Origin: an uncultured Rhodobiaceae bacterium
Lineage (GTDB): Bacteria > Pseudomonadota > Alphaproteobacteria > Rhizobiales > TMED25
Length of the DNA stretch: 64,000 nt
Assembly (NCBI GenBank): GCA_913030915.1
Contig: CAJWEW010000001.1
Span: 35,225-99,224 of the forward strand
Direction of reading: 5' to 3'
The notes under the pieces were generated by a model. That model did not search any database and was not told the origin of the DNA. It saw only the letters and a list, made by a program, of their open reading frames with translations. The first letter of the stretch is position 1. Each line of letters begins with the position of its first letter. This document shows, piece after piece, positions 8,360 to 42,093 of the stretch. Position numbers and translations under genes: made by a program.

Positions 8360-11110
8360 TTACTTATTTTCTTCCATTGAAGATAGCAACATACTTTTTA
8401 TTAGTAAAAGCTTTTCAGGTGAAGAAATTTTTTCTCCAAACAGATTTGTTATATAAAAGATATCATTTGCCTTCTCTCCAAAAGTAACAATGTGTGCTGA
8501 TTTAATATTGACGTTTGTCTCTTTCAATTTATTAGCAATTTGATAGAGCAATCCGGGTCTATCCCTACCCTCAATTTCAATTACAGTCGAGTTATTTGAA
8601 AATTCATTCGTTATGTTGACTTCATTTCTGACTTCAAAAGTTTTCTCGTAGCGAATTTTTGTGCTTTTCTCTGATATCTCACTATCTAGCGATAATTCAC
8701 CACCTAAGCTTTTTTTTATGCAATCTGAAATTCTTATCATTCTCCTATCTTCATCATGATCTTGGAAATCTCGATTGACAGATATAGTATCAATTGCAAT
8801 TCCATCTATAGTAGTTTCGATCTGGGCATCAATTATGTTCGCATCATAGAGTGAGCATGCACCGGCTAGTGTTTCTAATAAATTAGGATAGTCAGGTCCA
8901 ATAAGTGTGATCGTTGTTGTATTATTTTTGGTATTTTTTTTACAATAAATTTCAAGGGAGATATTTTTTGAGTCTTTATCTTTTAAGATCTTTGCATGTT
9001 CGATTTGTTGATCAATAGAGGTCGTAAGCCAGTAGTTATTACTAAATCTATGAACGTATGAATTTATGAGTAGTTTTGGCCAGTCAGATACTACTTCTTT
9101 AAATTTATTTTGAGCTTTGATGCAGTTATTTTCATTTTCAATATATTTATTTTTATCTCCGCTCAAATAATTTGATGTCTCGTTATAAAGTGTACTAAGG
9201 AGACCACTTTTCCAAGCATTCCAAATGCTTGGACCAACTGACATTATATCTGCGACAGTAAGTGCTAAGAGGTAATCCAAATTTTTCTGATTTTTCACAA
9301 TTTTAGCAAAATCTACTATTGTCTTTGGATCATACAAATCTCTTTTTTGAGCAATATCACTCATAACTAAATGATTTTTCACGAGCCATGCTGTCTGGAA
9401 AACTTCGGTTTTATTCATTCCAATTCTAGTACATAGTTTTTCTGTTATCTGGGATCCAAGGATACTATGGTCTTGCTTCCTTCCCTTACCAATATCATGT
9501 AGAAAAGAAGAGAGAAGCAGCACTTTTTTATTATCAAGTTTATCATTAAAATTTGAAGAAAATGGATGAGGTTGGCTAAGAGTATTATTTATTATTTGAC
9601 TCATAAAACCAACTGTCTTGAGAAGGTGTTCATCCACAGTATAATTATGATAGAGGTTGAAAAGTGACATACCCTCAACTTTTGCAAAATCAGGTAGAAA
9701 TTTACCAAGAACCCCAGCATCGTTCATGTTTCTCAGTATAGTTTCAGGTTCTCTCGAATTTGAAAATAGGTCCAAAAAAACTTTATTTGCGGGTTTACTA
9801 TTTCGTAAATCATTATCAATAATCTTGAGTGAGCGATTAATGGATTGAATTATTTCGGGGCTAAGCAATACATTATCTCGATCGGCTATGACGAAGAGTC
9901 TTATCAAATCTAATTTATTCTTATTGAAGCTAAAATTATCTTTTGTATGAAGCCTACCTTTCTTTATGTAAAAATTCGACTCACGGTTATCCTTTTTTCG
10001 AAAAGACAAAATATTATCTAGAACTTCATAGACAGCTGGATCCTTTTTTATCGATTTTTCTTCAAGAGAAGCACAAACTATTCTTGTTAAATTTCCAACT
10101 TCCTTCGCAGTCATAAAATAATGCTTCATGAATCGTTCAACATCTTTTTGACCAGGTCTCTTGGCGTATCCCAACCGTGATGCGAGTTCGAGTTGTTTGT
10201 CAAAGGTTAGCACTTCGTTATCTCTATTTGAGATAAAATGCAAGTGGCATCGTACAACCCAAAGAAAATCTTCTGCTTTTTTGAAGCTATTTAATTCGGA
10301 TGAGGTAAGGAATTGATCGTTTTTTGTTAGATTATCTAGAGCCTGAGTTCTAAAAAGATACTTACCAATCCAAAATAGTGTATGTAAGTCTCTAAGGCCT
10401 CCCTTACTCTCCTTGACATTTGGCTCAACAAGGAAGCGTGATGAACCATATGTACTATGTCTTTTATCTCTCTCATCTAACTTCATCTCTATAAATTCAT
10501 CAGCTGTCTTGGCAACAATTTCTTTGTTGAACCTTTGAACTAATTTTTCATATAAATCCAAGTGTCCGTATATATATCTTGCTTCTAAAATTGATGTTCT
10601 TATGGTGAGATCGGATTTTGAGAGTTCAAGACATTGATCTAAGTTTCTTGTAGCATGACCAACCTTAAAGCCTAAGTCCCAAAGAATATATAGCATGTAT
10701 TCAATGACGGACTCTGTCCAATCACTAAGTTTATTTGAATGCAAGAAGAGTAGATCAATATCTGAAAAAGGAGCAAGTGTTCCTCTGCCGTAGCCACCAA
10801 CAGCCACGAGGCATATTTTATCAAAATTCTCTTGGTCTGTTGGTAAATGTATGTTTTGGACTATAAATTCATAAATTTTTTCTATGAGTATATCTTGGAA
10901 TTTTGATATGCTTCGAGCTGTTCGAATACCACTCCCATGCCTTATTAGTGCGCTTTCAGCTTTTCTTCTCGCAGATTCTATTATGTCAGATAATTCTGTG
11001 ATTAAGCTCTCACGGGTTTTTGAGATATTATCTCTATATTTCGATACAATTTTGTCTATGCACAAATCAAGAGACTTCTGATTTACTAATATGTCTATGT
11101 CTTTGTTCAT
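8360..11110 (-). CDS. glnD: [Protein-PII] uridylyltransferase/uridylyl-removing enzyme GlnD
   Basis: 916 aa. Nucleotidyltransferase 'GGYGRGTLAPFSDIDLL', HD domain 'FLHDIGKG', and two C-terminal ACT-like domains ('IEIEGRDRPGLLYQIA'). Confidence 0.9.
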   Translation of the reverse strand: MNKDIDILVNQKSLDLCIDKIVSKYRDNISKTRESLITELSDIIESARRKAESALIRHGSGIRTARSISKFQDILIEKIYEFIVQNIHLPTDQENFDKICLVAVGGYGRGTLAPFSDIDLLFLHSNKLSDWTESVIEYMLYILWDLGFKVGHATRNLDQCLELSKSDLTIRTSILEARYIYGHLDLYEKLVQRFNKEIVAKTADEFIEMKLDERDKRHSTYGSSRFLVEPNVKESKGGLRDLHTLFWIGKYLFRTQALDNLTKNDQFLTSSELNSFKKAEDFLWVVRCHLHFISNRDNEVLTFDKQLELASRLGYAKRPGQKDVERFMKHYFMTAKEVGNLTRIVCASLEEKSIKKDPAVYEVLDNILSFRKKDNRESNFYIKKGRLHTKDNFSFNKNKLDLIRLFVIADRDNVLLSPEIIQSINRSLKIIDNDLRNSKPANKVFLDLFSNSREPETILRNMNDAGVLGKFLPDFAKVEGMSLFNLYHNYTVDEHLLKTVGFMSQIINNTLSQPHPFSSNFNDKLDNKKVLLLSSFLHDIGKGRKQDHSILGSQITEKLCTRIGMNKTEVFQTAWLVKNHLVMSDIAQKRDLYDPKTIVDFAKIVKNQKNLDYLLALTVADIMSVGPSIWNAWKSGLLSTLYNETSNYLSGDKNKYIENENNCIKAQNKFKEVVSDWPKLLINSYVHRFSNNYWLTTSIDQQIEHAKILKDKDSKNISLEIYCKKNTKNNTTTITLIGPDYPNLLETLAGACSLYDANIIDAQIETTIDGIAIDTISVNRDFQDHDEDRRMIRISDCIKKSLGGELSLDSEISEKSTKIRYEKTFEVRNEVNITNEFSNNSTVIEIEGRDRPGLLYQIANKLKETNVNIKSAHIVTFGEKANDIFYITNLFGEKISSPEKLLLIKSMLLSSMEENK

Positions 11111-31359: not shown

Positions 31360-31572
31360 ATGATAGACGAATTTAAATATACATTGATATTATTAGCAAT
31401 TTTTCTTTTATCTGGATATATCTTTCATAAGATTAAGTCCCGCGAAATTAAAAATATAGAGGTGCCACATTTTCTAAGTAGGATTGCAAGCATCCTTGGG
31501 TTGGTGATAATAGTATCTTTCGCATTAGGTATTACTATGGCAGTTATTACAGTAGTAAAATTACTAGGTTGA
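31360..31572 (+). CDS. Small two-TM membrane protein (hypothetical)
   Basis: 70 aa with two hydrophobic helices. It lies 9 bp upstream of the pirin gene on the same strand. No recognisable family. Confidence 0.35.
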   Translation: MIDEFKYTLILLAIFLLSGYIFHKIKSREIKNIEVPHFLSRIASILGLVIIVSFALGITMAVITVVKLLG

Positions 31573-31581
31573 AGGATTGAT

Positions 31582-32484
31582 ATGTCGTTTAGACCAATAA
31601 CAACAATCTCAAAACCGAAATCTGTTATTGAAGGTGCAGGGGTCTCTCTAGATAGAGTTTTTGGCTTCATGGAGCCAGAGAAATTTGACCCATTTTTACT
31701 TTTAGATGATTTTAGAAATGATGACCCAGAATATTATAAGGCTGGGTTTCCGTGGCATCCACACAGAGGTATTGAGACGATAACATACGTCTTGGAGGGA
31801 ACTGTTGAACACAAAGATAGTTTAGGAAATACAGGATTATTATCGGGTGGTGATGTTCAGTGGATGACTGCTGGGTCTGGAATAATGCATCAAGAAATGC
31901 CCCAGGGTAATAAGAACGGTCAGATGCATGGCTTTCAATTATGGGCAAATCTCCCCTCAGAAAAAAAAATGATAACGCCAAGGTATCAAGATATTAAGAT
32001 ATCAAGTATACCCGTTATTGAGGATGACGATGGATCAAAAATTAAAGTTATCGTTGGTAATTATAGAGGGATTCTAGGACCAGTTGATGGCATTGCAGCC
32101 GAGCCAGAGTTTTTGGATGTATCCATACCGCCACATACTCATAAAGTAATAAAAATAGATACATATAAGAAGACTTTTGCATATATTTTTTATGGAAAGG
32201 CAGATTTCAAATATGCTTCAGCTCCAGCTGGAATAAAAGTAGAAAAAGAGTTTGGGGGGAGGGAATTAAATATAAGAGATTTATCGGGTAATAAAACCTT
32301 GATATACTTTGATCCCGGAGAATTTGTCTCTCTTCATACAGGTGAAGAAGGTGTTAGGTTCCTTCTTGTTTCAGGAAAGCCGATCAGGGAGCCGATTGCA
32401 TGGCACGGTCCAATCGTCATGAATTCACGAAATGAGCTGATGCAAGCGATGCATGAATTAAATACAGGTCAGTTTATTAAATAA
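31582..32484 (+). CDS. Pirin family protein (bicupin, quercetinase-like)
   Basis: 300 aa. 'GFPWHPHRGIETITYVLEGTVEHKDSLGN' is the pirin signature; C-terminal 'IAWHGPIVMN'. Confidence 0.9.
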   Translation: MSFRPITTISKPKSVIEGAGVSLDRVFGFMEPEKFDPFLLLDDFRNDDPEYYKAGFPWHPHRGIETITYVLEGTVEHKDSLGNTGLLSGGDVQWMTAGSGIMHQEMPQGNKNGQMHGFQLWANLPSEKKMITPRYQDIKISSIPVIEDDDGSKIKVIVGNYRGILGPVDGIAAEPEFLDVSIPPHTHKVIKIDTYKKTFAYIFYGKADFKYASAPAGIKVEKEFGGRELNIRDLSGNKTLIYFDPGEFVSLHTGEEGVRFLLVSGKPIREPIAWHGPIVMNSRNELMQAMHELNTGQFIK

Positions 32485-32510
32485 TTAAAAAGCAGCAAAG
32501 AGGAGAAAAA

Positions 32511-32891
32511 ATGATCAAAAACAAATTATTTGTGAAGGGGGGCTGTCCTTTTTCATATAAGTTCATAATTTTTCTGAATGAGATAGATAAACTTGAAGAT
32601 TTTGATATTAATGTGGCTCATGCCGATGAACCTTCATACGAGGAAATTACTATGTATATACTTGATAAATCAGGTCAAAAGGCAAGTTTCCCAACCGTTG
32701 AAACAGATGATGGTATCTTCCTAGTGGGGTCTGACGAGTTAATTTTACATTATTCTGAAATTTATAAAACAAACAGGGATGATATAAAAATGCTTAATTA
32801 TTGGGAAAAAAATATGATGCCGAGAATGCGGAATGTAATAAAGCAATTGAGAGAAGCAAACGAGAGAATTGAAAGCATAAGTCAAAAATAG
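32511..32891 (+). CDS. Thioredoxin-fold protein (glutaredoxin / GST-N-terminal-like)
   Basis: 126 aa. 'GGCPFSYKF' active-site-like motif and 'FPTVETDDGIFLVGSDELILHY', typical of the GST-N/Grx fold. Confidence 0.5.
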   Translation: MIKNKLFVKGGCPFSYKFIIFLNEIDKLEDFDINVAHADEPSYEEITMYILDKSGQKASFPTVETDDGIFLVGSDELILHYSEIYKTNRDDIKMLNYWEKNMMPRMRNVIKQLREANERIESISQK

Positions 32892-32899
32892 TGTGAAAT

Positions 32900-33550
32900 G
32901 TGAATCTTAGTCAGAGTATTGATATATATTGTGAGAGAGTATCTTCTGAAGTATTCTCTGAACCAATAAACTTTTTCACTAATCTTGCTTTTTGGGTCGC
33001 CTTCTTTTTATTGCTAAAAAAATATAATAAAAAAAATTATGAACATCTAAACCTGAGAATTTATTCCTCAATACTTATATTTCTTGTTTTTATAATAGGT
33101 ACGGGCAGTTTTCTTTTCCATTTATTCGGAAATCTATGGTCATTAATAGCTGATACGGTTCCAATATTGATTTTTATAATCTTATACCTTTATCTCGCCG
33201 TCCGATTCTATCTTGAACAAACTCAAGTTATTTCTTTTTTTTCAATATTTTTATTTTTATTTTTAAATTATTCATTGAGTTATTCTGGCGTTGAGGAGGT
33301 ATCCTCATACCTGATGGCTCTATTTTCTATGTTAATTATTGCATGTGTTGCATATAGAAAAAATAAAAGGGATATCTCATATGGACTATTTCTCACATCT
33401 CTCATCTTCATGGTATCACTTGGATTTAGGCAGCTTGATTTATTTACTTGTGCACAATTTTCACATGGCACACATTGGATATGGCATATATTGAACTCGA
33501 TATTGTTATATACTCTCGTTATATTATTTATTGAAAGAAAAATTCGTTGA
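32900..33550 (+). CDS. Ceramidase-domain (CREST-type) 7-TM membrane hydrolase-like protein
   Basis: 216 aa with a GTG start and about 7 TM helices. N-terminal 'IYCERVSSEVFSEPINFFTNLAF' and C-terminal 'HGTHWIWHILN' (HxxxH) match the bacterial ceramidase-domain family pattern as I recall it. Confidence 0.55.
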   Translation: MNLSQSIDIYCERVSSEVFSEPINFFTNLAFWVAFFLLLKKYNKKNYEHLNLRIYSSILIFLVFIIGTGSFLFHLFGNLWSLIADTVPILIFIILYLYLAVRFYLEQTQVISFFSIFLFLFLNYSLSYSGVEEVSSYLMALFSMLIIACVAYRKNKRDISYGLFLTSLIFMVSLGFRQLDLFTCAQFSHGTHWIWHILNSILLYTLVILFIERKIR

Positions 33551-33870
33551 ATTTTATTATGATTTATACGACATGTACGTCAGAAGACGAAGCGGCACAT
33601 ATTTCAAAGATTTTATTGGATAAGAATTTGATTGCGTGCAGTAATATCATTCCAAAGACCTTATCCATCTTTGAGTGGGACAGCAAGATTTCTAGTCAAA
33701 GTGAGTGTGCGTTACTACTAAAGACAATTGAAGAAAATTTTGATGGGGTATCTGCACTCATTAAAGAAAATCATTCATATGAAATGCCGTGTATTTTGAG
33801 CTTTCCTATCAAAAATATTGATAGTGATTTTGGTGATTGGGTAGAGAAAATAACAAAAAAACAGGTTTGA
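33547..33870 (+). CDS. cutA: Divalent-cation tolerance protein CutA
   Basis: 107 aa in the track (TTG). The likely true start is the ATG at 33559 ('MIYTTCTSEDEA...'). 'LIACSNIIP...SIFEWDSKI' and 'HSYEMPCILSFPI' are CutA1-like. Confidence 0.8.
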   Translation: MNFIMIYTTCTSEDEAAHISKILLDKNLIACSNIIPKTLSIFEWDSKISSQSECALLLKTIEENFDGVSALIKENHSYEMPCILSFPIKNIDSDFGDWVEKITKKQV

Positions 33871-33874
33871 ATTT

Positions 33875-34561
33875 ATGAGTAAAAGTTTATTCGAAAGGAT
33901 AAAGAATAATCGATTTTTCCAAGCTTTTGTTATTATTGCAATTATATTATCAGCCTTCCTGGTTGGTGTTTCAACATATAATATACCTGCACCAACAGTT
34001 GCATTTATTTACTTTTTAGACACTCTAATTACAATTTTCTTTGTTATCGAAATTTGTATAAGATTCTTTGCAGAGGATAAAAAATTATATTTTTTTAAAA
34101 ATGGCTGGAATGTTTTTGATACTTTAATTGTGATAATTTCGATCATTCCAATTGGCCCAAACTCATCAATACTGGTGCTAAGATTATTGAGAATATTCAG
34201 AGTTTTGAGATTAATATCTGCCATACCTGAGCTTAAAGAACTGATAGAGGCACTATTAAAATCAATCAAAAGAGTATTTTATGTATCCTTGCTCCTATTC
34301 ATAATAATTTATGTTTATGCTTCATTTGGAAGCATTTTGTTCGGACAATCAGATCCTCAGAGATGGGGAGATCTTGGAATATCGATGATTACCCTTGTTC
34401 AAGTTCTCACACTATCAAGTTGGGAAAATGTAATGTTACCTATGCAGGAGATATTTTGGTGGGCATGGGTATACTTCTTTAGTTTTGTCGCAATAGGATC
34501 AATAACAATCCTAAATTTGATTATTGCAGTTTTAGTTGACGTAATAACAAAGCAAAAATAG
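33875..34561 (+). CDS. Voltage-gated cation channel, BacNaV (NaChBac/NavRh) family
   Basis: 228 aa with six TM segments. S4 'LVLRLLRIFRVLRLISAIPELK' has four Arg at every third position; pore 'LVQVLTLSSWENVM'; S6 ends at 'LVDVITKQK', so there is no C-terminal coiled coil. Confidence 0.9.
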   Translation: MSKSLFERIKNNRFFQAFVIIAIILSAFLVGVSTYNIPAPTVAFIYFLDTLITIFFVIEICIRFFAEDKKLYFFKNGWNVFDTLIVIISIIPIGPNSSILVLRLLRIFRVLRLISAIPELKELIEALLKSIKRVFYVSLLLFIIIYVYASFGSILFGQSDPQRWGDLGISMITLVQVLTLSSWENVMLPMQEIFWWAWVYFFSFVAIGSITILNLIIAVLVDVITKQK

Positions 34562-34596
34562 TTAACATAAAGTTACTACTTTTTTATAAAAAAACA

Positions 34597-34672
34597 TTGT
34601 TTTTAGCATATTTTTCCAATATTTTAGGTGTAAGGAAATAAGGGGTTATATAGTTAATTTTTAAAAGGGAGA
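34597..34672 (+). promoter_or_regulatory. Candidate sigma70-like promoter and strong Shine-Dalgarno for the rhodopsin gene
   Basis: 'TTGTTT' (34597-34602), a 17-nt spacer, then 'TATTTT' (34620-34625). 'AAGGGAGA' at 34665-34672 lies 6 nt before the ATG. The promoter match is weak evidence in an AT-rich genome; the SD is clear. Confidence 0.3.
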
Positions 34673-34678
34673 ACTATT

Positions 34679-35368
34679 ATGACAACAGGACAACTCAATC
34701 CAGCTGATTACGTCGGCGTAAGTTTCTGGATTATATCTGCAGCTATGGTTGCAGCAACATTCTTTTTCTGGGTAGAAAGAGATCGCGCAGTTGGTAAATG
34801 GAAAACATCTCTAACTGTAGCCGCAATGGTTACAGGTATTGCTGCCATCCACTATTTCTACATGCGTGATGTTTGGGTTAGCACAGGCGAGTCCCCAATC
34901 GTATTCCGATATGTAGACTGGCTTTTAACCGTACCACTTCAAATTGTTGAATTCTACTTAATACTGGCAGCTATTGCTGTGGTTGCAGCGTCGCTATTCT
35001 GGCGCCTGCTGATCGCATCAATTGTAATGCTAGTTGCCGGTTATCTCGGTGAAGTTGGTGCAATGAATGTCTGGCTTGCGTTCATTATCGGAATGGCAGG
35101 TTGGATCTACATCATTTACGAAATATTTGCTGGTGAAGCAAGTAAAATTAGTGCAAGTGATGGTACTCCAGCATCTCAACGAGCATTTAATGCTTTGAGA
35201 ATCATTGTAACAGTCGGTTGGGCAATTTACCCACTCGGCTATGTACTTGGTTATGCTGGTGCCGGAAGTGCAGATGCGCTTAACATCATATACAACCTTG
35301 CTGATTTTGTTAACAAAATCGCATTTGGTGTTGTTATATGGGTTGCTGCTACATCTGACGCAAAATAA
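34679..35368 (+). CDS. Proteorhodopsin (light-driven proton pump), blue-tuned Gln105 type
   Basis: 229 aa with 7 TM helices. It aligns by eye along its whole length to green PR. 'FRYVDWLLTVPLQIVEFYLIL' gives Arg94, Asp97, Thr101, Gln105 and Glu108; 'IHYFYM' gives His75; 'YNLADFVNKIAFG' gives Asp227 and the Schiff-base Lys231. Confidence 0.95.
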   Translation: MTTGQLNPADYVGVSFWIISAAMVAATFFFWVERDRAVGKWKTSLTVAAMVTGIAAIHYFYMRDVWVSTGESPIVFRYVDWLLTVPLQIVEFYLILAAIAVVAASLFWRLLIASIVMLVAGYLGEVGAMNVWLAFIIGMAGWIYIIYEIFAGEASKISASDGTPASQRAFNALRIIVTVGWAIYPLGYVLGYAGAGSADALNIIYNLADFVNKIAFGVVIWVAATSDAK

Positions 35369-35375
35369 TAACAAC

Positions 35376-35404
35376 GTTGGTGGTTGTCTAGTACAACCAC
35401 CAAC
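35376..35404 (+). terminator. Perfect 12-bp stem hairpin immediately after the rhodopsin stop
   Basis: 'GTTGGTGGTTGT' (35376-35387), loop 'CTAGT', then 'ACAACCACCAAC' (35393-35404). It starts 8 nt after the TAA. No U-tract follows ('ACTTATAACC'). Confidence 0.5.
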
Positions 35405-35431
35405 ACTTATAACCCCCTAAACTTCCTTCTT

Positions 35432-35791
35432 ATGAAAAAGCCTACCATTCAAGTAATTTATAATCATTCTTGCTCGATCTGTAGGTTCGAAATTAATCAC
35501 TATAAAAAACAAAATACAGATACAATTCAGTATCTAGATTTGCATCAAAATTTACCTGAGAAATTGGGCTCAATCGATAAAGCTAAATTGATTAGAAAAC
35601 TTCATGTATGTGAAGGGGATAAGGTTTATATTGGCGTAGATGCATTTAAGTTAATTTGGTCAAAGATTGATCGCTATAAGCTTCTTGCAAAACTGCTTGA
35701 CTTTAAAGTTGTATATTTTCTCGCAACGCATTTATATGAAGTGCTGGCTTTTTTTTTATATCTAAAAAACCGGAAACAAATTAATGAGTAA
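35432..35791 (+). CDS. DCC-family thiol-disulfide oxidoreductase (DUF393)
   Basis: The track ORF starts at 35384 with a non-ATG codon inside the hairpin. The ATG at 35432 gives 'MKKPTIQVIYNHSCSICRFEINHY...' with the DCC CxxC motif and 'IGVDAFKLIWSKI'. Confidence 0.65.
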   Translation: MKKPTIQVIYNHSCSICRFEINHYKKQNTDTIQYLDLHQNLPEKLGSIDKAKLIRKLHVCEGDKVYIGVDAFKLIWSKIDRYKLLAKLLDFKVVYFLATHLYEVLAFFLYLKNRKQINE

Positions 35792-37717: not shown

Positions 37718-39196
37718 TCAATTATTTTCTCGACAAATTTTGCTAATTGTTTGTCTTAGGAAACTATTTCTGTCAACTGCCACTTCTTGATGGTAACAAC
37801 GTGTTCTTGGGTACCAAATATTAATACCATCTAGCCATCTCCAGTCCCAAGGCCTGTTAAGAAGTACATGTGTGTTAATGCCTGCTGCGCCGGCAATGTG
37901 TATTGTTGTGTTGTCAATAGATACAATAAAATCACAAGCGCCTGCCAAATTTAGTAGGCCATCGATGTCATTAAAAAGATCTATTGCTTCATCGTTATAA
38001 ATGGTTACACCAAGTTTACGGCTCACTTGGTTGATCTCTTCGATTGACGAGTTATATTGAAGATTTACGTAGACATAATCATGCATTGAATTTCCAAATG
38101 ATTTTATAAAGTTTAACAAACTATAACTGCGATCTTTGCCAGACTGATTATTTTCAGAAAACCAGCTAATGCCACAAATCTTTTTTTCACCTTTTAATTT
38201 TCCTTTTATCCTGTTTACCTCCTTATCATCAAAATTCAATATGACTTGGTTTGTTTTTGGATCTTGATCTGGCTTTGCATTATATTTTAGTAGACCAAAC
38301 ATTGATAAATGCTCATCATATTTAATTTTTTTAATATCATAATCATTCGGTAAAAACGTAATATTTTTATCAAAACTCCTGCTAAAAATTCCCTGTAGCC
38401 GTGGATCGCACAAAATAAATATCTCATCAAAATTGTTCATAGGCTTATTAAAAAAAAGTGAGCACATGATCTGATCTCCAGGTCCTTGTTCATCCCATAT
38501 CAATAACTTCTTTCCACGGGAAGAGCCATTCCATTCTGCTGTCTCAAAATTATATCTCTTCGATAAGAATGATGGGCTATTCCAGCGATGATCAAATAAT
38601 TCCCAGCCTATTTCGAAATTTTTTTGTTTTAAATTGGTAAAACCCCTGAAGTACATTGCCTCATAATGCTGAGGTTGTGACTTTATAATCTCTTTAAATG
38701 TATGATCCGCCGCTTCAAGTTGGTCGAGCTTATATTCTACAAATCCTTTGGTAACTAATATATCCGTATCTTCGGGGCGTATTTTTATGGCCCTCTCAAT
38801 TTGTTTAAAAGCTGATTGCCATTCACCCTCTCGACCAAGAGCTTTCGCATAATTGTGAATACATGATGCATTATTCGCATTCAAACTTAATGATTTCCTA
38901 TAATCAATGATTGCACGCAAATTGTCATTTTTTCTCCCATATGATAGCGCTCTCCAGAAATAATAGTCAGAATTATTTTTTTTATATTTAATTGCAGAGG
39001 ACAAATAATGGATTGCCTCTTCATAAAATCCTTGGAAAAATTTTACACAGCCCATTTGATGCAGAAGCTCGGAATTATTGCTTGAACTCTTCAATAATTC
39101 TTGAAGTCGAGGCTCGGCATCTCCAATTTTTCCTGAAGATATCAAAGTTCCGATAAAATTTATTTGTTTAGTAATGTTGTTGTCAGAGTTTATCAT
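37718..39196 (-). CDS. TPR-repeat protein with C-terminal GT9-like (heptosyltransferase-fold) domain
   Basis: 492 aa. The N-terminal half has TPR-like repeats ('YEEAIHYLSSAIKYKKNN', 'WQSAFKQIERAIKIRPED'). The C-terminal 'LLIWDEQGPGDQIM' and 'SIDNTTIHIAGAAGINTHVLL..PWDWRW' resemble GT9 motifs. Confidence 0.6.
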   Translation of the reverse strand: MINSDNNITKQINFIGTLISSGKIGDAEPRLQELLKSSSNNSELLHQMGCVKFFQGFYEEAIHYLSSAIKYKKNNSDYYFWRALSYGRKNDNLRAIIDYRKSLSLNANNASCIHNYAKALGREGEWQSAFKQIERAIKIRPEDTDILVTKGFVEYKLDQLEAADHTFKEIIKSQPQHYEAMYFRGFTNLKQKNFEIGWELFDHRWNSPSFLSKRYNFETAEWNGSSRGKKLLIWDEQGPGDQIMCSLFFNKPMNNFDEIFILCDPRLQGIFSRSFDKNITFLPNDYDIKKIKYDEHLSMFGLLKYNAKPDQDPKTNQVILNFDDKEVNRIKGKLKGEKKICGISWFSENNQSGKDRSYSLLNFIKSFGNSMHDYVYVNLQYNSSIEEINQVSRKLGVTIYNDEAIDLFNDIDGLLNLAGACDFIVSIDNTTIHIAGAAGINTHVLLNRPWDWRWLDGINIWYPRTRCYHQEVAVDRNSFLRQTISKICRENN

Positions 39197-39202
39197 GATT
39201 GA

Positions 39203-40444
39203 TCAAAGTAATTTATGTATGATTTTCCTCTGCTCTTTTTTTGGCTTTTCCATAAAGATATCGATCATCTCATAGAATTCATTCATGCTCATTCCGAATG
39301 AAACTTCGAATGCTGACTCCCAGCCAACTATTGGTACATTGCCGTAGTATGATTTAAAACTATCTATAAAGTTCTCATTACCAATTTGGCTCTCAAGGAC
39401 CGCTAATGCAATAGCTGCGGTCTCATACTGCAGCCACCCTTGGCATTCTTCACAAATACTTCTCACGTTTGCTTGATCTTGCCGCGTCGCAATATCACGG
39501 AGAGTAAATTTGTGGATCCTATTGACTTTTATTGCAGCATCTAGTGCCTCATTGAGGAAATCTTTATAATGATTGTTATAGCCATCTTGGTAGGTAAATT
39601 TTTGAGCTAATCCTTCAGCAAATCCTTCTTCAAGCCATACTGGTCCATGAGAGTATTCTTCTGTCAACCCTGCTTGCTCGGCAGCAATGTCATTACCCCA
39701 TAAAAAGAACCCATTCTGATATACGTGAATATATTCGTGCGCACTGGTAATGATGGAGCGGCCTTCTTTTGTAGATCTATTATCTTCACTAAAAACTGCG
39801 GATTGGTATCTGATATTCTGACCGATCCCATGTGAAGGATTATGTGCTGCGCCACAACATCCAAAATTCGGGAAATCATTCATAGCATTTTCAAAGCAGT
39901 TTTCAAATGGCTCTTCGGTATATTTATCAGCAGAATTACAGTAGATTTTAGCAATTTCTTCAACGTCTACAACAAACCCTTTTTCTTCGTTATTGCCAAC
40001 TAAGTAGACGTGATAGGGACCATAATTGCCGAGACGACTTGATACGATTTCAATTCCTCTAGTTACAGCGTTTATTGACTCATCACTAAATACACTCGTA
40101 GCAAAGATTAGCGGGGGGTATTCCGTCTTTGCGCTATTCATCAAGCACTCCGCTATTTTAACTTTATCCTTTTCAGGGGGAACACCGTTTTGAGCATCTC
40201 TAAGATTATCTAGTATATCCTCGTATCCATGCCAACAATCATATCCTACATAATTAGGAAGACTATTATCTAAAGCCATGAATAAGGGTTTTATATTATT
40301 TGAATATTTTTCAGTAGAATTAGAAGCGTTTGCCCATAGAACCAAAAGCCAAGAAAACACTGTTAACCAAATTAAGTTATTTTTTTTCACTCTACTCATT
40401 AGATGCTCACTATTGAATATATCACATATGTTCTTGCTGTCCAT
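39203..40444 (-). CDS. Putative secreted gluzincin-type zinc metalloprotease (HExxH...WLEEGFAE)
   Basis: 413 aa. The probable real start is the Met at 40399 ('MSRVKKNNLIWLTVFSWLLVLWANA', signal-peptide-like). 'SAHEYIHVY' followed 32 residues later by 'WLEEGFAEGLA'. The gene lies 6 bp upstream of the TPR/GT9-like gene in transcription order. Confidence 0.55.
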   Translation of the reverse strand: MDSKNICDIFNSEHLMSRVKKNNLIWLTVFSWLLVLWANASNSTEKYSNNIKPLFMALDNSLPNYVGYDCWHGYEDILDNLRDAQNGVPPEKDKVKIAECLMNSAKTEYPPLIFATSVFSDESINAVTRGIEIVSSRLGNYGPYHVYLVGNNEEKGFVVDVEEIAKIYCNSADKYTEEPFENCFENAMNDFPNFGCCGAAHNPSHGIGQNIRYQSAVFSEDNRSTKEGRSIITSAHEYIHVYQNGFFLWGNDIAAEQAGLTEEYSHGPVWLEEGFAEGLAQKFTYQDGYNNHYKDFLNEALDAAIKVNRIHKFTLRDIATRQDQANVRSICEECQGWLQYETAAIALAVLESQIGNENFIDSFKSYYGNVPIVGWESAFEVSFGMSMNEFYEMIDIFMEKPKKEQRKIIHKLL

Positions 40445-40494
40445 CGGACTGATTTTATTGTATCATGTTATTTTTATAGGTGTTAGGCAAAGCA

Positions 40495-41481
40495 ATGAAA
40501 AAATTATTAGCAATTCCACTTATCTTATTTCTATTTATTTCACCTTCGATATCTCATGATGAGGAAGTTTACACCTTGGAGGGCCAATGGATGGTCTATT
40601 CAAATGATGATAATTTCATACATTATAAGGATCAGAATCAGTCATTACAAAGAGAAGATGGTGATGATATAGATGGCAGATCCTTTTATGATGAAGCGGA
40701 CACAAGCAGCGATTATCAAGTCCATGCCATTTATATCCTAGCTGCTGACTCAAAGGATAAAAAATATGATGTCAACGGAACGATTGAAGATATTGTTTCT
40801 AAAGGTAATGTTCATCTAAAAAAATACACAAATCAGCAACAATTCAGATTAGATTATAAAGAAAACGGAAAGTTGGATGTTAGTTTCATTAGAGTCAGCA
40901 AAACGCGTAAAGAAATCAATAAAATAGAAAATGGTGCAGGCTATTTTACAGGAATGGCAATCAGTCGTGGCTTCAATAATCCGAGAAAACTATATGCGAT
41001 TTTTTACCAGGATAAATACAAAAGAGAGTGGGGACAAGTGGGGGATTCGATTCTCGAAACACCAAATGGGAGTATTGAGATTAATGCTGGTGTTGTATAT
41101 CTTGGAGCAGAGAAGACAAGTGATGCTTGGGTTCCTCATTTGCATGAACTATTCCATGCAATAGGTTTTGTACAATTATGTGCGCCAGGTGCAGTGACAG
41201 AAAGAAACTCTCGTTGGGGGAAAAATGATCATCTTAATTACAAGAATGACATAATGAGTGATAGGGGTGGAGACAAAAAGTATATTGATAAGAAAAGAAG
41301 TGAATATTATAGCCATTCCAATCTAAATTGCGAGCTTGATATTGAAAAAAGTGCATTCATGGAGCCCACAAAAGAAGATTATCAATTACAGCCGTTTTCG
41401 CCATCATGTAAGCTTACTAGGTGGCAGCCAAATTATAATCATCAGAGATCACTAGATTGTCTAGCAAAATTAGACTTTTAA
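40495..41481 (+). CDS. Putative secreted metzincin/astacin-like metalloprotease with non-canonical third ligand
   Basis: The track ORF starts at 40480 (GTG). The ATG at 40495 gives the signal peptide 'MKKLLAIPLILFLFISPSISH'. The motif 'HLHELFHAIGFVQ' follows HExxHxxGF but has Gln where metzincins have His or Asp. Confidence 0.5.
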   Translation: MKKLLAIPLILFLFISPSISHDEEVYTLEGQWMVYSNDDNFIHYKDQNQSLQREDGDDIDGRSFYDEADTSSDYQVHAIYILAADSKDKKYDVNGTIEDIVSKGNVHLKKYTNQQQFRLDYKENGKLDVSFIRVSKTRKEINKIENGAGYFTGMAISRGFNNPRKLYAIFYQDKYKREWGQVGDSILETPNGSIEINAGVVYLGAEKTSDAWVPHLHELFHAIGFVQLCAPGAVTERNSRWGKNDHLNYKNDIMSDRGGDKKYIDKKRSEYYSHSNLNCELDIEKSAFMEPTKEDYQLQPFSPSCKLTRWQPNYNHQRSLDCLAKLDF

Positions 41482-41498
41482 AATTTAAAACTTTATGA

Positions 41499-41574
41499 TG
41501 GTGGAGCCAGGGGGGCTCGAACCCCCGACCTCTTCGCTGCCAGCGAAGCGCTCTCCCAACTGAGCTATGGCCCC
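41499..41574 (-). tRNA. tRNA-Ala (anticodon GGC), CCA encoded
   Basis: The reverse complement 'GGGGCCATAGCTCAGTTGGGAGAGCGCTTCGCTGGCAGCGAAGAGGTCGGGGGTTCGAGCCCCCCTGGCTCCACCA' folds as a 76-nt cloverleaf: 7-bp acceptor with the G3:U70 Ala identity pair, anticodon loop CTGGCAG, and T-loop TTCGAGC. Confidence 0.95.
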
Positions 41575-41658
41575 TTATTAGCAAAATAACATAAATATAA
41601 GTTTCATTAAATACAGAATCTTTTTTTGATAATATTTAATCGCAATAAAAAATATATC

Positions 41659-42093
41659 TCATTTACAATAGCTCGGAAGGGGTAATTCTCTTGACGCCTC
41701 TGTCTCGAAGATTTTATACTTCCCTTTTGAATATCTTTTGCAATCTCTCGCGCAACCATTCTCTATTATTTTTTGTTGTAAATCTTCGGTTTTACCTTTT
41801 TTTGAGACTGCACAAATACCAACATGCCGGTCGTAGGTCATATCACCTGTTAATTTGCATGAGATAGCATCGAATTCAGAGATAATTTTTTCTACTGTAT
41901 TTTTGCAAGATTTATAGGTCTTATGACCTCTTTCTGCGGCGGATATCCCATTCAAGCGTATTTTTATATCGCAAAGTTTTATTGTGTCTGCATCTATTAC
42001 ATTCACATTACGGGAAGCGCAATTAATTTCTTTACTATGCGAAAGAGAGGTATAACTTATTAGAATAATTATTATGTAAGCCAGTCTTTTCAT
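41659..42093 (-). CDS. Secreted thermonuclease (SNase)-like protein, Cys-rich
   Basis: 144 aa with signal peptide 'MKRLAYIIIILISYTSLSHS'. 'VIDADTIKLCDIKIRLNGISAAERG' parallels the SNase 'DGDT...RL.GIDAPE' block, and 'YDRHVGIC' parallels 'DRYGR'. Confidence 0.6.
   Translation of the reverse strand: MKRLAYIIIILISYTSLSHSKEINCASRNVNVIDADTIKLCDIKIRLNGISAAERGHKTYKSCKNTVEKIISEFDAISCKLTGDMTYDRHVGICAVSKKGKTEDLQQKIIENGCARDCKRYSKGKYKIFETEASRELPLPSYCK

Follow-up and report, generated by a model that had tools for sequence, protein, structure and literature searches.

The locus described here raises the question of whether a short bacterial voltage-gated channel, encoded directly upstream of a proteorhodopsin gene, works in partnership with that light-driven pump, or whether the two genes are neighbours for reasons of ancestry. 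We examined this in a window of 64,000 nucleotides, the whole stretch of DNA that was analysed, and in the loci of its relatives. The reading that we favour, with a probability of about 78%, is that the gene encodes a NavRh-subfamily channel and ends an upstream gene array, that the rhodopsin is a separate cassette, and that the adjacency of the two is inherited clade synteny.

The channel gene lies at 33875..34561 on the + strand. In the six-frame ORF list it has an ATG start and encodes a single-domain protein of 228 amino acids with six transmembrane segments. The Pfam family Ion_trans (PF00520) matches residues 12-227 with an E-value of 2.7e-44, and the protein aligns over its full length with NavRh, NaChBac, NavAb and NavMs, so that the description of the gene in the first-pass annotation as a complete six-transmembrane BacNaV is borne out. 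When all PDB chains were searched, the top match was 4dxw_A (NavRh, 229 aa), with an E-value of 3.2e-91. Residues 5-228 of the channel pair with residues 4-227 of this chain without a gap, at 67% identity over 224 residues, and a wide margin separates this match from the bacterial channels ranked after it (NaChBac, 4e-41; 4bgn, 9e-40; NavMs, about 3e-37; NavAb, about 1e-34). The dN/dS ratio against five to six relatives is 0.04-0.08, a sign of strong purifying selection over the whole gene, which argues that the gene is real. The family to which it belongs is widespread in OCS116, HIMB59 and SAR11-type genomes and is highly conserved, at 64-93% identity. Among the best 120 homologues from a collection of 5.8 billion proteins, which are 227-263 amino acids long and come from OCS116, Hyphomicrobiales-like MAGs, HIMB59 and Pelagibacterales, the motif QVLTLSSWE is invariant.

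The features that define the subfamily could be located from the translation, the residue indices and the NavRh alignment. The S4 voltage-sensor helix, LVLRLLRIFRVLRLIS, spans residues 98-115 (34166..34219, + strand) and carries Arg103, Arg106, Arg109 and Arg112, one at every third position; the whole stretch is identical to the S4 of NavRh, and the register is the same. The pore loop, QVLTLSSWENVM, contains the selectivity filter TLSSWE at residues 179-184 (34409..34426, + strand), and the longer motif QVLTLSSWE is again identical in NavRh. In the pore alignment with NavAe1 (4lto), TLSSWE- stands opposite TLESWSM. This pairing places Ser181 where the canonical glutamate would be and shifts the acidic residue, Glu184, by three positions towards the C-terminus, with one residue deleted after it. 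At the C-terminus, residue 228 is only 2-4 residues past the aligned S6 and there is no C-terminal domain, while NaChBac (274 aa), NavAb (285 aa), NavMs (277 aa) and 4bgn (298 aa) extend 37-60 residues beyond that point. Four evenly spaced S4 arginines, a displaced filter glutamate and a missing neck and coiled coil were what the annotation had read from the letters when it assigned the gene to the NavRh type, and each of these readings holds in the alignments; the pore motif had not been misread, and 4dxw is the best match. All of the sequence-level defining features of BacNaVs and of the NavRh subfamily that we checked are present. Judged by its sequence, ORF 33875-34561 is an intact new member of the known and already crystallised NavRh subfamily of short BacNaVs.

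The likeness to NaChBac, NavAb, NavMs and NavAe1 extends to the single six-transmembrane Ion_trans domain, the four S4 arginines, the T-L-x-S-W motif, the S6 asparagine and the architecture of pore helix, filter and pore helix. The channel departs from these canonical BacNaVs in its filter, which reads TLSSWE instead of TLESWS/A and has the deletion after the displaced glutamate, and in having none of their cytoplasmic C-terminal domain of 37-60 residues. NavRh (4DXW) similarly has no C-terminal neck or coiled coil and aligns with the channel from end to end. Nevertheless, one-third of the residues differ between the two proteins, chiefly in S1-S3 and S5.

A mechanism for this channel can be proposed by analogy with the crystallised NavRh and with the BacNaV family at large. 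Four copies of the ORF product would make up a NavRh-subfamily voltage-gated cation channel, a homotetramer in which depolarisation would shift the four S4 arginines outward and open the S5-S6 pore. Four Glu184 carboxylates would form the outer high-field-strength site, reaching it from three residues later in the chain than in TLESWS channels, and a TLSSWE filter built in this way is expected to be Na+-selective. Because the protein stops just past S6, the tetramer would assemble and gate with neither the neck nor the coiled coil found in NaChBac and NavAb. Opening of such a channel in seawater would let Na+ in and so depolarise the cell.

The literature on NavRh gives this mechanism a partial basis. 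NavRh comes from HIMB114, has the filter TLSSWET and was silent in both mammalian and insect cells, where it gave no current (PMC4225499). Once transplanted into NaChBac, its filter proved selective for Na+, and the filter glutamates of NavRh and NavAb start from different positions and occupy the same space (PMC4225499). Since no native current is on record for any NavRh-type channel (PMC4225499), selectivity and gating are extrapolated here; Na+ selectivity, voltage gating and tetramer formation are properties that we infer for this channel by analogy. A channel named 'NavRhi' (PMC13082454) was considered as a source on NavRh and set aside, as it is a separate channel from a Rhizobiales bacterium. 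It could be argued that the protein is a NavRh homologue by sequence and yet fails to act in vivo as a voltage-gated channel selective for Na+, either because it is Ca2+-permeable or non-selective or because it needs a partner or a lipid. The silence of NavRh in the two expression systems (PMC4225499) would fit this explanation, as would the absence of a C-terminal assembly domain and a displaced glutamate that makes the filter unlike those of the characterised channels. Against it stand the Na+ selectivity that TLSSWE confers once grafted into NaChBac (PMC4225499), the intact S4 charges, counter-charges and S6 asparagine, and the strong purifying selection gene-wide, and we consider it unlikely.

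The source of the DNA bears on how the neighbourhood is to be read. From the filter, the annotation had taken a taxonomic hint that pointed to HIMB114, and this proved wrong. The window is about 90% identical in nucleotide sequence to, and syntenic with, single-amplified genomes (SAGs) and MAGs of the OCS116 cluster / 'Rhodobiaceae'. Loci L001-L005 rank highest, with channel proteins 91-93% identical to that of the window; they belong to OCS116-cluster SAGs and 'Rhodobiaceae' MAGs, and their gene order matches that of the window throughout more than 10 kb, at a nucleotide identity of about 81-99%. The GC content of the window is 35%. On synteny and nucleotide identity, the window is an OCS116-type genome, and HIMB114 is rejected as the source organism, as is SAR11. 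The inference from the filter went wrong because the family with TLSSWE is far wider than HIMB114. The present gene and NavRh thus come from different groups, the OCS116 cluster and SAR11 subclade IIIa, respectively. The NCBI taxonomy lists OCS116 among the Alphaproteobacteria as an unplaced clade.

Upstream of the channel gene lies a compact co-directional array. ORF coordinates and Pfam matches (Pirin/Pirin_C, Ceramidase) place a 70-aa membrane ORF, a pirin gene, a glutaredoxin-like gene of 126 aa and a ceramidase-like gene with seven transmembrane segments at 31360..33550 (+ strand). These are followed by cutA (CutA1 family, PF03091; Pfam E-value 5e-30) at 33547..33870 (+ strand), which overlaps the ceramidase-like gene by 4 bp. 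The distance of 4 bp between cutA and the channel given in the annotation is exact, with cutA ending at 33870 and the channel ATG at 33875. From the membrane ORF to the channel, the gaps in the six-gene array are 9, 26, 8, -4 and 4 bp. Apart from cutA, the order of the upstream array is kept in all 11 OCS116-type loci that have an upstream flank (L010 begins at the channel gene); cutA itself is kept in nine of the 11 and is missing from L006 and L007. The array, which runs from the membrane ORF through pirin, the glutaredoxin-like protein, the ceramidase-like protein and CutA, probably ends with the channel.

Downstream, the co-directional proton-pump rhodopsin that had been placed 117 bp from the channel is indeed there, at 34679..35368 on the + strand. 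It matches Pfam Bac_rhodopsin (PF01036) with an E-value of 9e-49, and its top PDB matches are the proteorhodopsins 4jq6 and 2l6x (E-value 1e-84). The D97/T101/E108 motif of a proton pump is found in RYVDWLLTVPLQIVEF, the Schiff-base lysine lies in FVNKIAFG, and glutamine at the tuning position makes the protein a blue-type proteorhodopsin like 4jq6. The gene resembles the proteorhodopsin cassettes of other marine bacteria in its blue-type DTE sequence, its strong ribosome-binding site and its 3' hairpin, and differs from them in that no retinal or carotenoid genes were found between about 22 and 48 kb in the window. In one relative, L006, crtI and crtB lie 3' of the rhodopsin.

The spacer between the channel and the rhodopsin (34562..34678, + strand) is 117 bp long, has a GC content of 21% and contains both a promoter-like block and a Shine-Dalgarno sequence. 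The block is the 31-nt stretch ATTGTTTTTAGCATATTTTTCCAATATTTTA at 34596-34626, with TTGTTT and TATTTT separated by 17 nt. It is a weak sigma-70 match, and the case for it is one of conservation: the pattern ATTGTTTTT..TTTTC.AATATT(T/C)TA is kept 5' of the rhodopsin in seven of nine aligned loci (L011 and L012 are without it), whichever gene precedes the rhodopsin, be it the channel, DCC1 (L006) or a LuxC-like gene (L008/L009). A Shine-Dalgarno sequence, GGGAG, follows at 34667-34671, 7 nt before the rhodopsin ATG. The consensus promoter and terminator scan called nothing in the spacer 34562-34678, and promoter sites were no commoner than in shuffled sequence. When the window was scanned for Rfam families and tRNAs, the only hit was a tRNA-Ala, and the spacer therefore holds no RNA element recognised by these scans. 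An AT-rich stem at 34555-34590 was considered as a terminator of the channel gene and rejected, as it is not significant (z -0.11) and the consensus scan was empty. Given that no convincing terminator lies between the two genes, co-transcription of channel and rhodopsin by read-through is possible.

Directly 3' of the rhodopsin stop codon there is a 12-bp stem-loop (35376..35404, + strand) with a minimum free energy of -19.3 kcal/mol and a z-score of -4.85; none of 200 shuffled sequences was equally stable. A hairpin occurs at the same site in 11 of 11 related loci with differing stem sequences, and in L011 and L012 it is followed by a T-run. This element probably terminates the rhodopsin transcript or marks its 3' end. 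The next gene encodes a DCC1-like thiol-disulfide oxidoreductase (35432..35791, + strand; Pfam E-value 2e-14), which probably starts at the ATG at 35432 and not at the TTG at 35384, since its homologues begin MSKTKISVIYN or MKVYYNEKCS and the TTG lies inside the hairpin.

With its upstream block kept regardless of the gene on the 5' side and its 3' hairpin kept through sequence change, the rhodopsin appears to form a cassette complete in itself, made up of the promoter-like block, the ribosome-binding site, the gene and the hairpin, which was relocated, set apart or lost without the channel. Synonymous divergence points in the same direction. Against L001-L005, the rhodopsin has a dS of 0.10-0.13 and the channel one of 0.50-0.95, while cutA and the ceramidase-like gene lie at 0.36-0.80; a tract from about 34400 to 35500 has 96-99% nucleotide identity against a background of 81-93%. 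The very different synonymous divergence of the channel and the rhodopsin argues that the histories of the two genes are uncoupled.

The distribution of the adjacency itself was surveyed by a scan in which the channel protein was run against a single genome from each GTDB species, a procedure that reaches only loci sharing an exact 8-residue word and that yielded 80 loci. All loci were searched with the neighbouring proteins of the window, and all flanking ORFs were clustered. The HIMB114 locus fell outside the scan and NavRh was not among the best 120 homologues, so that loci 86-88% identical to NavRh served as proxies for it. An OCS116/Hyphomicrobiales-like group of 14 loci, with channel identities of 78-93%, contains every case in which a rhodopsin is found near the channel. 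The channel is followed directly by the rhodopsin in eight of the 14 (L001-L005 and L010-L012); the remaining six show a modified arrangement or have lost it. In L006 the order is channel, DCC1, rhodopsin and then the two crt genes, and in L007 DCC1 follows the channel and the 6 kb on the 3' side contain no rhodopsin. L008 and L009 have a 3.3-kb insert between channel and rhodopsin that encodes a 139-aa membrane protein, a 443-aa protein and a LuxC-like reductase. The context of L014 and L017 is different altogether, with ABC-F and CbiX upstream and dihydroxy-acid dehydratase, photolyase and HIT downstream. A remnant of the 3' end of the L008/L009 insert is retained in L010. The eight loci with immediate adjacency reach down to 78% channel amino acid identity, where dS is saturated, which amounts to some persistence.

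Outside this group, none of 82 loci of other lineages, in about nine other neighbourhoods that include that of NavRh's own clade, had a rhodopsin within the flanks available. The genome loci among them comprise 55 intact SAR11-like SAG and MAG loci together with the partial locus L069, four from HIMB59 and seven from Pelagibacter; in the available flanks of these 66 loci, up to 5-6 kb per side and less on some shorter contigs, there was no rhodopsin. The same was true of 16 metagenome loci from six further channel clades, again in flanks of up to 5-6 kb with some contigs shorter. The neighbourhoods seen instead include one with EamA, a fatty-acid desaturase and bactofilin followed by ureG- and ureC-like genes (identified by sequence inspection), and others with cupredoxin, SDR, DUF2805, a photolyase-like gene, DCC1 and DPRP; with ABC/FtsX, GDSL, TPR and SRAP; with DUF1330, in some cases DPRP, and TauD; with Bac_luciferase and rhodanese; with a GST and a restriction-modification island; and with his genes and Maf. 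In the loci nearest to NavRh (86-88% identity), the channel has the fatty-acid desaturase, EamA and bactofilin as neighbours and no rhodopsin, unlike the present locus. Overall, the NavRh-family channel occurs in about ten different neighbourhoods and has no constant partner gene. The adjacency is present in the nearest relatives, eroded within the clade and absent elsewhere; it is therefore a clade-specific (OCS116) synteny by descent and not a conserved functional module.

These results bear directly on the suggestion, made when the locus was first annotated, that the channel and the proteorhodopsin form a functional pair. The two would be co-expressed, so that depolarisation-gated entry of Na+ or Ca2+ works together with a light-driven pump that sets the membrane potential. 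Light-driven hyperpolarisation could, for example, lift inactivation of the channel. Both proteins act on the membrane potential, the two genes run in the same direction, 117 bp apart, in a gap that contains no significant terminator, and the adjacency is retained in eight OCS116-type loci, even at 78% channel identity. However, conservation of the adjacency in relatives was the check that the annotation itself had proposed, and in most respects the pairing fails it. Within the same clade the arrangement is broken in four ways (L006, L007, L008/L009 and L014/L017), giving eight of 14 loci within the group, and it occurs in 0 of 82 loci of other lineages that have the same channel family, although those lineages commonly carry proteorhodopsin. 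The upstream block and the 3' hairpin travel with the rhodopsin, the dS of 0.10 for the rhodopsin against 0.50 for the channel indicates uncoupled histories, and the channel is packed more closely against cutA, at 4 bp, than against the rhodopsin. A partnership of the channel with proteorhodopsin is not supported, and we regard a functional pair as very unlikely.

A broader association with light can also be envisaged, in which NavRh-family genes sit in an old light- or UV-response neighbourhood (photolyase-family genes, DPRP, DUF2805, DCC1, rhodopsin) and are light-regulated along with it, the adjacency to rhodopsin being its local form. In four of the roughly ten neighbourhoods, a gene of this kind does lie no more than three genes away from the channel. 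Directly 3' of the channel in the HIMB59 loci are DUF2805, a photolyase-like FAD_binding_7 gene, DCC1 and DPRP; a full DNA photolyase lies two genes downstream in L014 and L017; DPRP lies two or three genes upstream in the P0060/P0083 clade; and the OCS116 loci have rhodopsin and DCC1, to which L006 adds crtI/crtB. However, the pattern was noticed post hoc with a flexible gene list, and the HIMB59, P0060 and Pelagibacter contexts probably represent one ancestral arrangement and not independent cases, since SDR, SRAP and DPRP are common to them. Sister loci of the P0060 clade are without DPRP, and the largest clade, the 56 SAR11-like loci, among which are the closest relatives of NavRh, has nothing light-related near the channel, and neither have four other contexts. 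We judge this explanation quite unlikely. That NavRh-family genes are found preferentially in light or UV neighbourhoods across several marine alphaproteobacterial lineages (OCS116, HIMB59, a SAR11-like clade with DPRP and a Hyphomicrobiales-like MAG group) is improbable to the same degree, and an enrichment of such neighbourhoods was dropped as a finding, the contexts being few, partly non-independent and chosen post hoc. The recurrence of photolyase-family and DCC1 genes near channels in several lineages is a weak lead. The reading that we prefer remains a NavRh-subfamily channel at the end of its own array, beside a rhodopsin cassette with which it shares a clade-specific position.

A literature search found no paper on the genomic context of NavRh-type channels, and none pairing proteorhodopsin with a voltage-gated sodium channel in SAR11. 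Since the former has no precedent among the papers found, the present survey of neighbourhoods is new, though essentially negative. Had a partnership with proteorhodopsin been conserved, it would have offered a hypothesis that could be tested, in which a membrane potential set by light gates the entry of Na+. If the association with light and UV genes were true, it would place the channel in a light-responsive regulon and would link electrical excitability in bacteria with the photic physiology of oligotrophic plankton. What this work provides is a documentation of the genomic contexts in which the NavRh family occurs and a correction of the taxonomy of the window, together with a rhodopsin that, at this locus, looks like an unusually conserved and self-contained cassette.

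Across window positions 34400-35500, nucleotide identity to five other species-level genomes rises to 96-99% over a background of 81-93%. This tract takes in the 3' end of the NavRh-family channel gene (33875-34561, forward strand), the spacer, the entire proteorhodopsin gene (34679-35368, forward strand) and the 5' end of the gene for a DCC1 (thiol-disulfide oxidoreductase-like) protein. At synonymous sites the rhodopsin gene is likewise set apart, with a dS of 0.10 against 0.36-0.95 in the neighbouring genes. The low value can be read either as very strong synonymous constraint in a highly expressed gene or as recent homogenisation of the cassette across species by recombination. Directly after the rhodopsin stop codon lies a strong stem-loop (35376-35404, z -4.85), whose position is kept in all relatives (L001-L012) while the stem sequences themselves differ (GTTGGTGGTTGT, CTAGTGGAAC or TTGGTGA). 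The TTG start of the DCC1 reading frame as mechanically called (35384) falls within this stem-loop, and the real start is probably the ATG at 35432.

The interval between channel and rhodopsin is not the same in every relative. In L008 (6702-9928) and L009, three inserted genes separate the two. One encodes a 139-aa membrane protein and another a 480-aa LuxC-like acyl-CoA reductase; the remaining product, of 443 aa, matches no Pfam family. In L010 (about 700-866), all that is left of the LuxC-like gene is its last ~25 bases, including the stop codon, upstream of rhodopsin, which implies a later deletion. Downstream of rhodopsin, L006 carries crtI-like (Amino_oxidase) and crtB-like (SQS_PSY) genes (8456-10764); no carotenoid or retinal genes were found among the larger window ORFs run against Pfam between about 22 and 48 kb. 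Farther along the window, a segment of about 4 kb (37718-41600) is missing from three of the closest relatives (L001, L003 and L004), and L002 and L005 have part of the segment. Encoded there are a 492-aa TPR protein, proteins of 413 and 333 aa that both lack a Pfam match, and a tRNA-Ala(GGC) at 41499-41574. In the other genomes the acyl-CoA synthetase gene is followed directly by the genes that start at 41659 in the window, and the segment looks like a variable island adjoining a tRNA.

In lineages where the channel has no rhodopsin beside it, photolyase-family genes recur in its vicinity. DUF2805, FAD_binding_7, DCC1 and DPRP genes lie close to it in HIMB59 (L070-L073, 6739-10132), a full DNA photolyase is encoded two genes downstream in the Hyphomicrobiales-like MAGs L014 and L017 (8840-10267), and DPRP is found upstream in a SAR11-like clade (L084-86; L097).

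A 613-aa ORF in the partial SAR11-like locus L069 (76-1917), on a 3-kb single-cell-genome contig, joins channel residues 53-228 to the ORF cluster 3 protein, presumably a urease alpha subunit given its size and apparent urease-operon context. At other loci the cluster 3 gene sits several kb farther downstream and is transcribed in the opposite direction, and the L069 ORF is probably an amplification chimera rather than a real fusion. NavRh-family proteins (L001-L080) share 64-70% identity between OCS116, HIMB59 and Pelagibacterales genomes, a level that looks high for membrane proteins from lineages so distant. Together with about ten unrelated gene neighbourhoods, this sequence similarity suggests that the channel family may have spread horizontally among marine oligotrophs, or that it may be under exceptional constraint.
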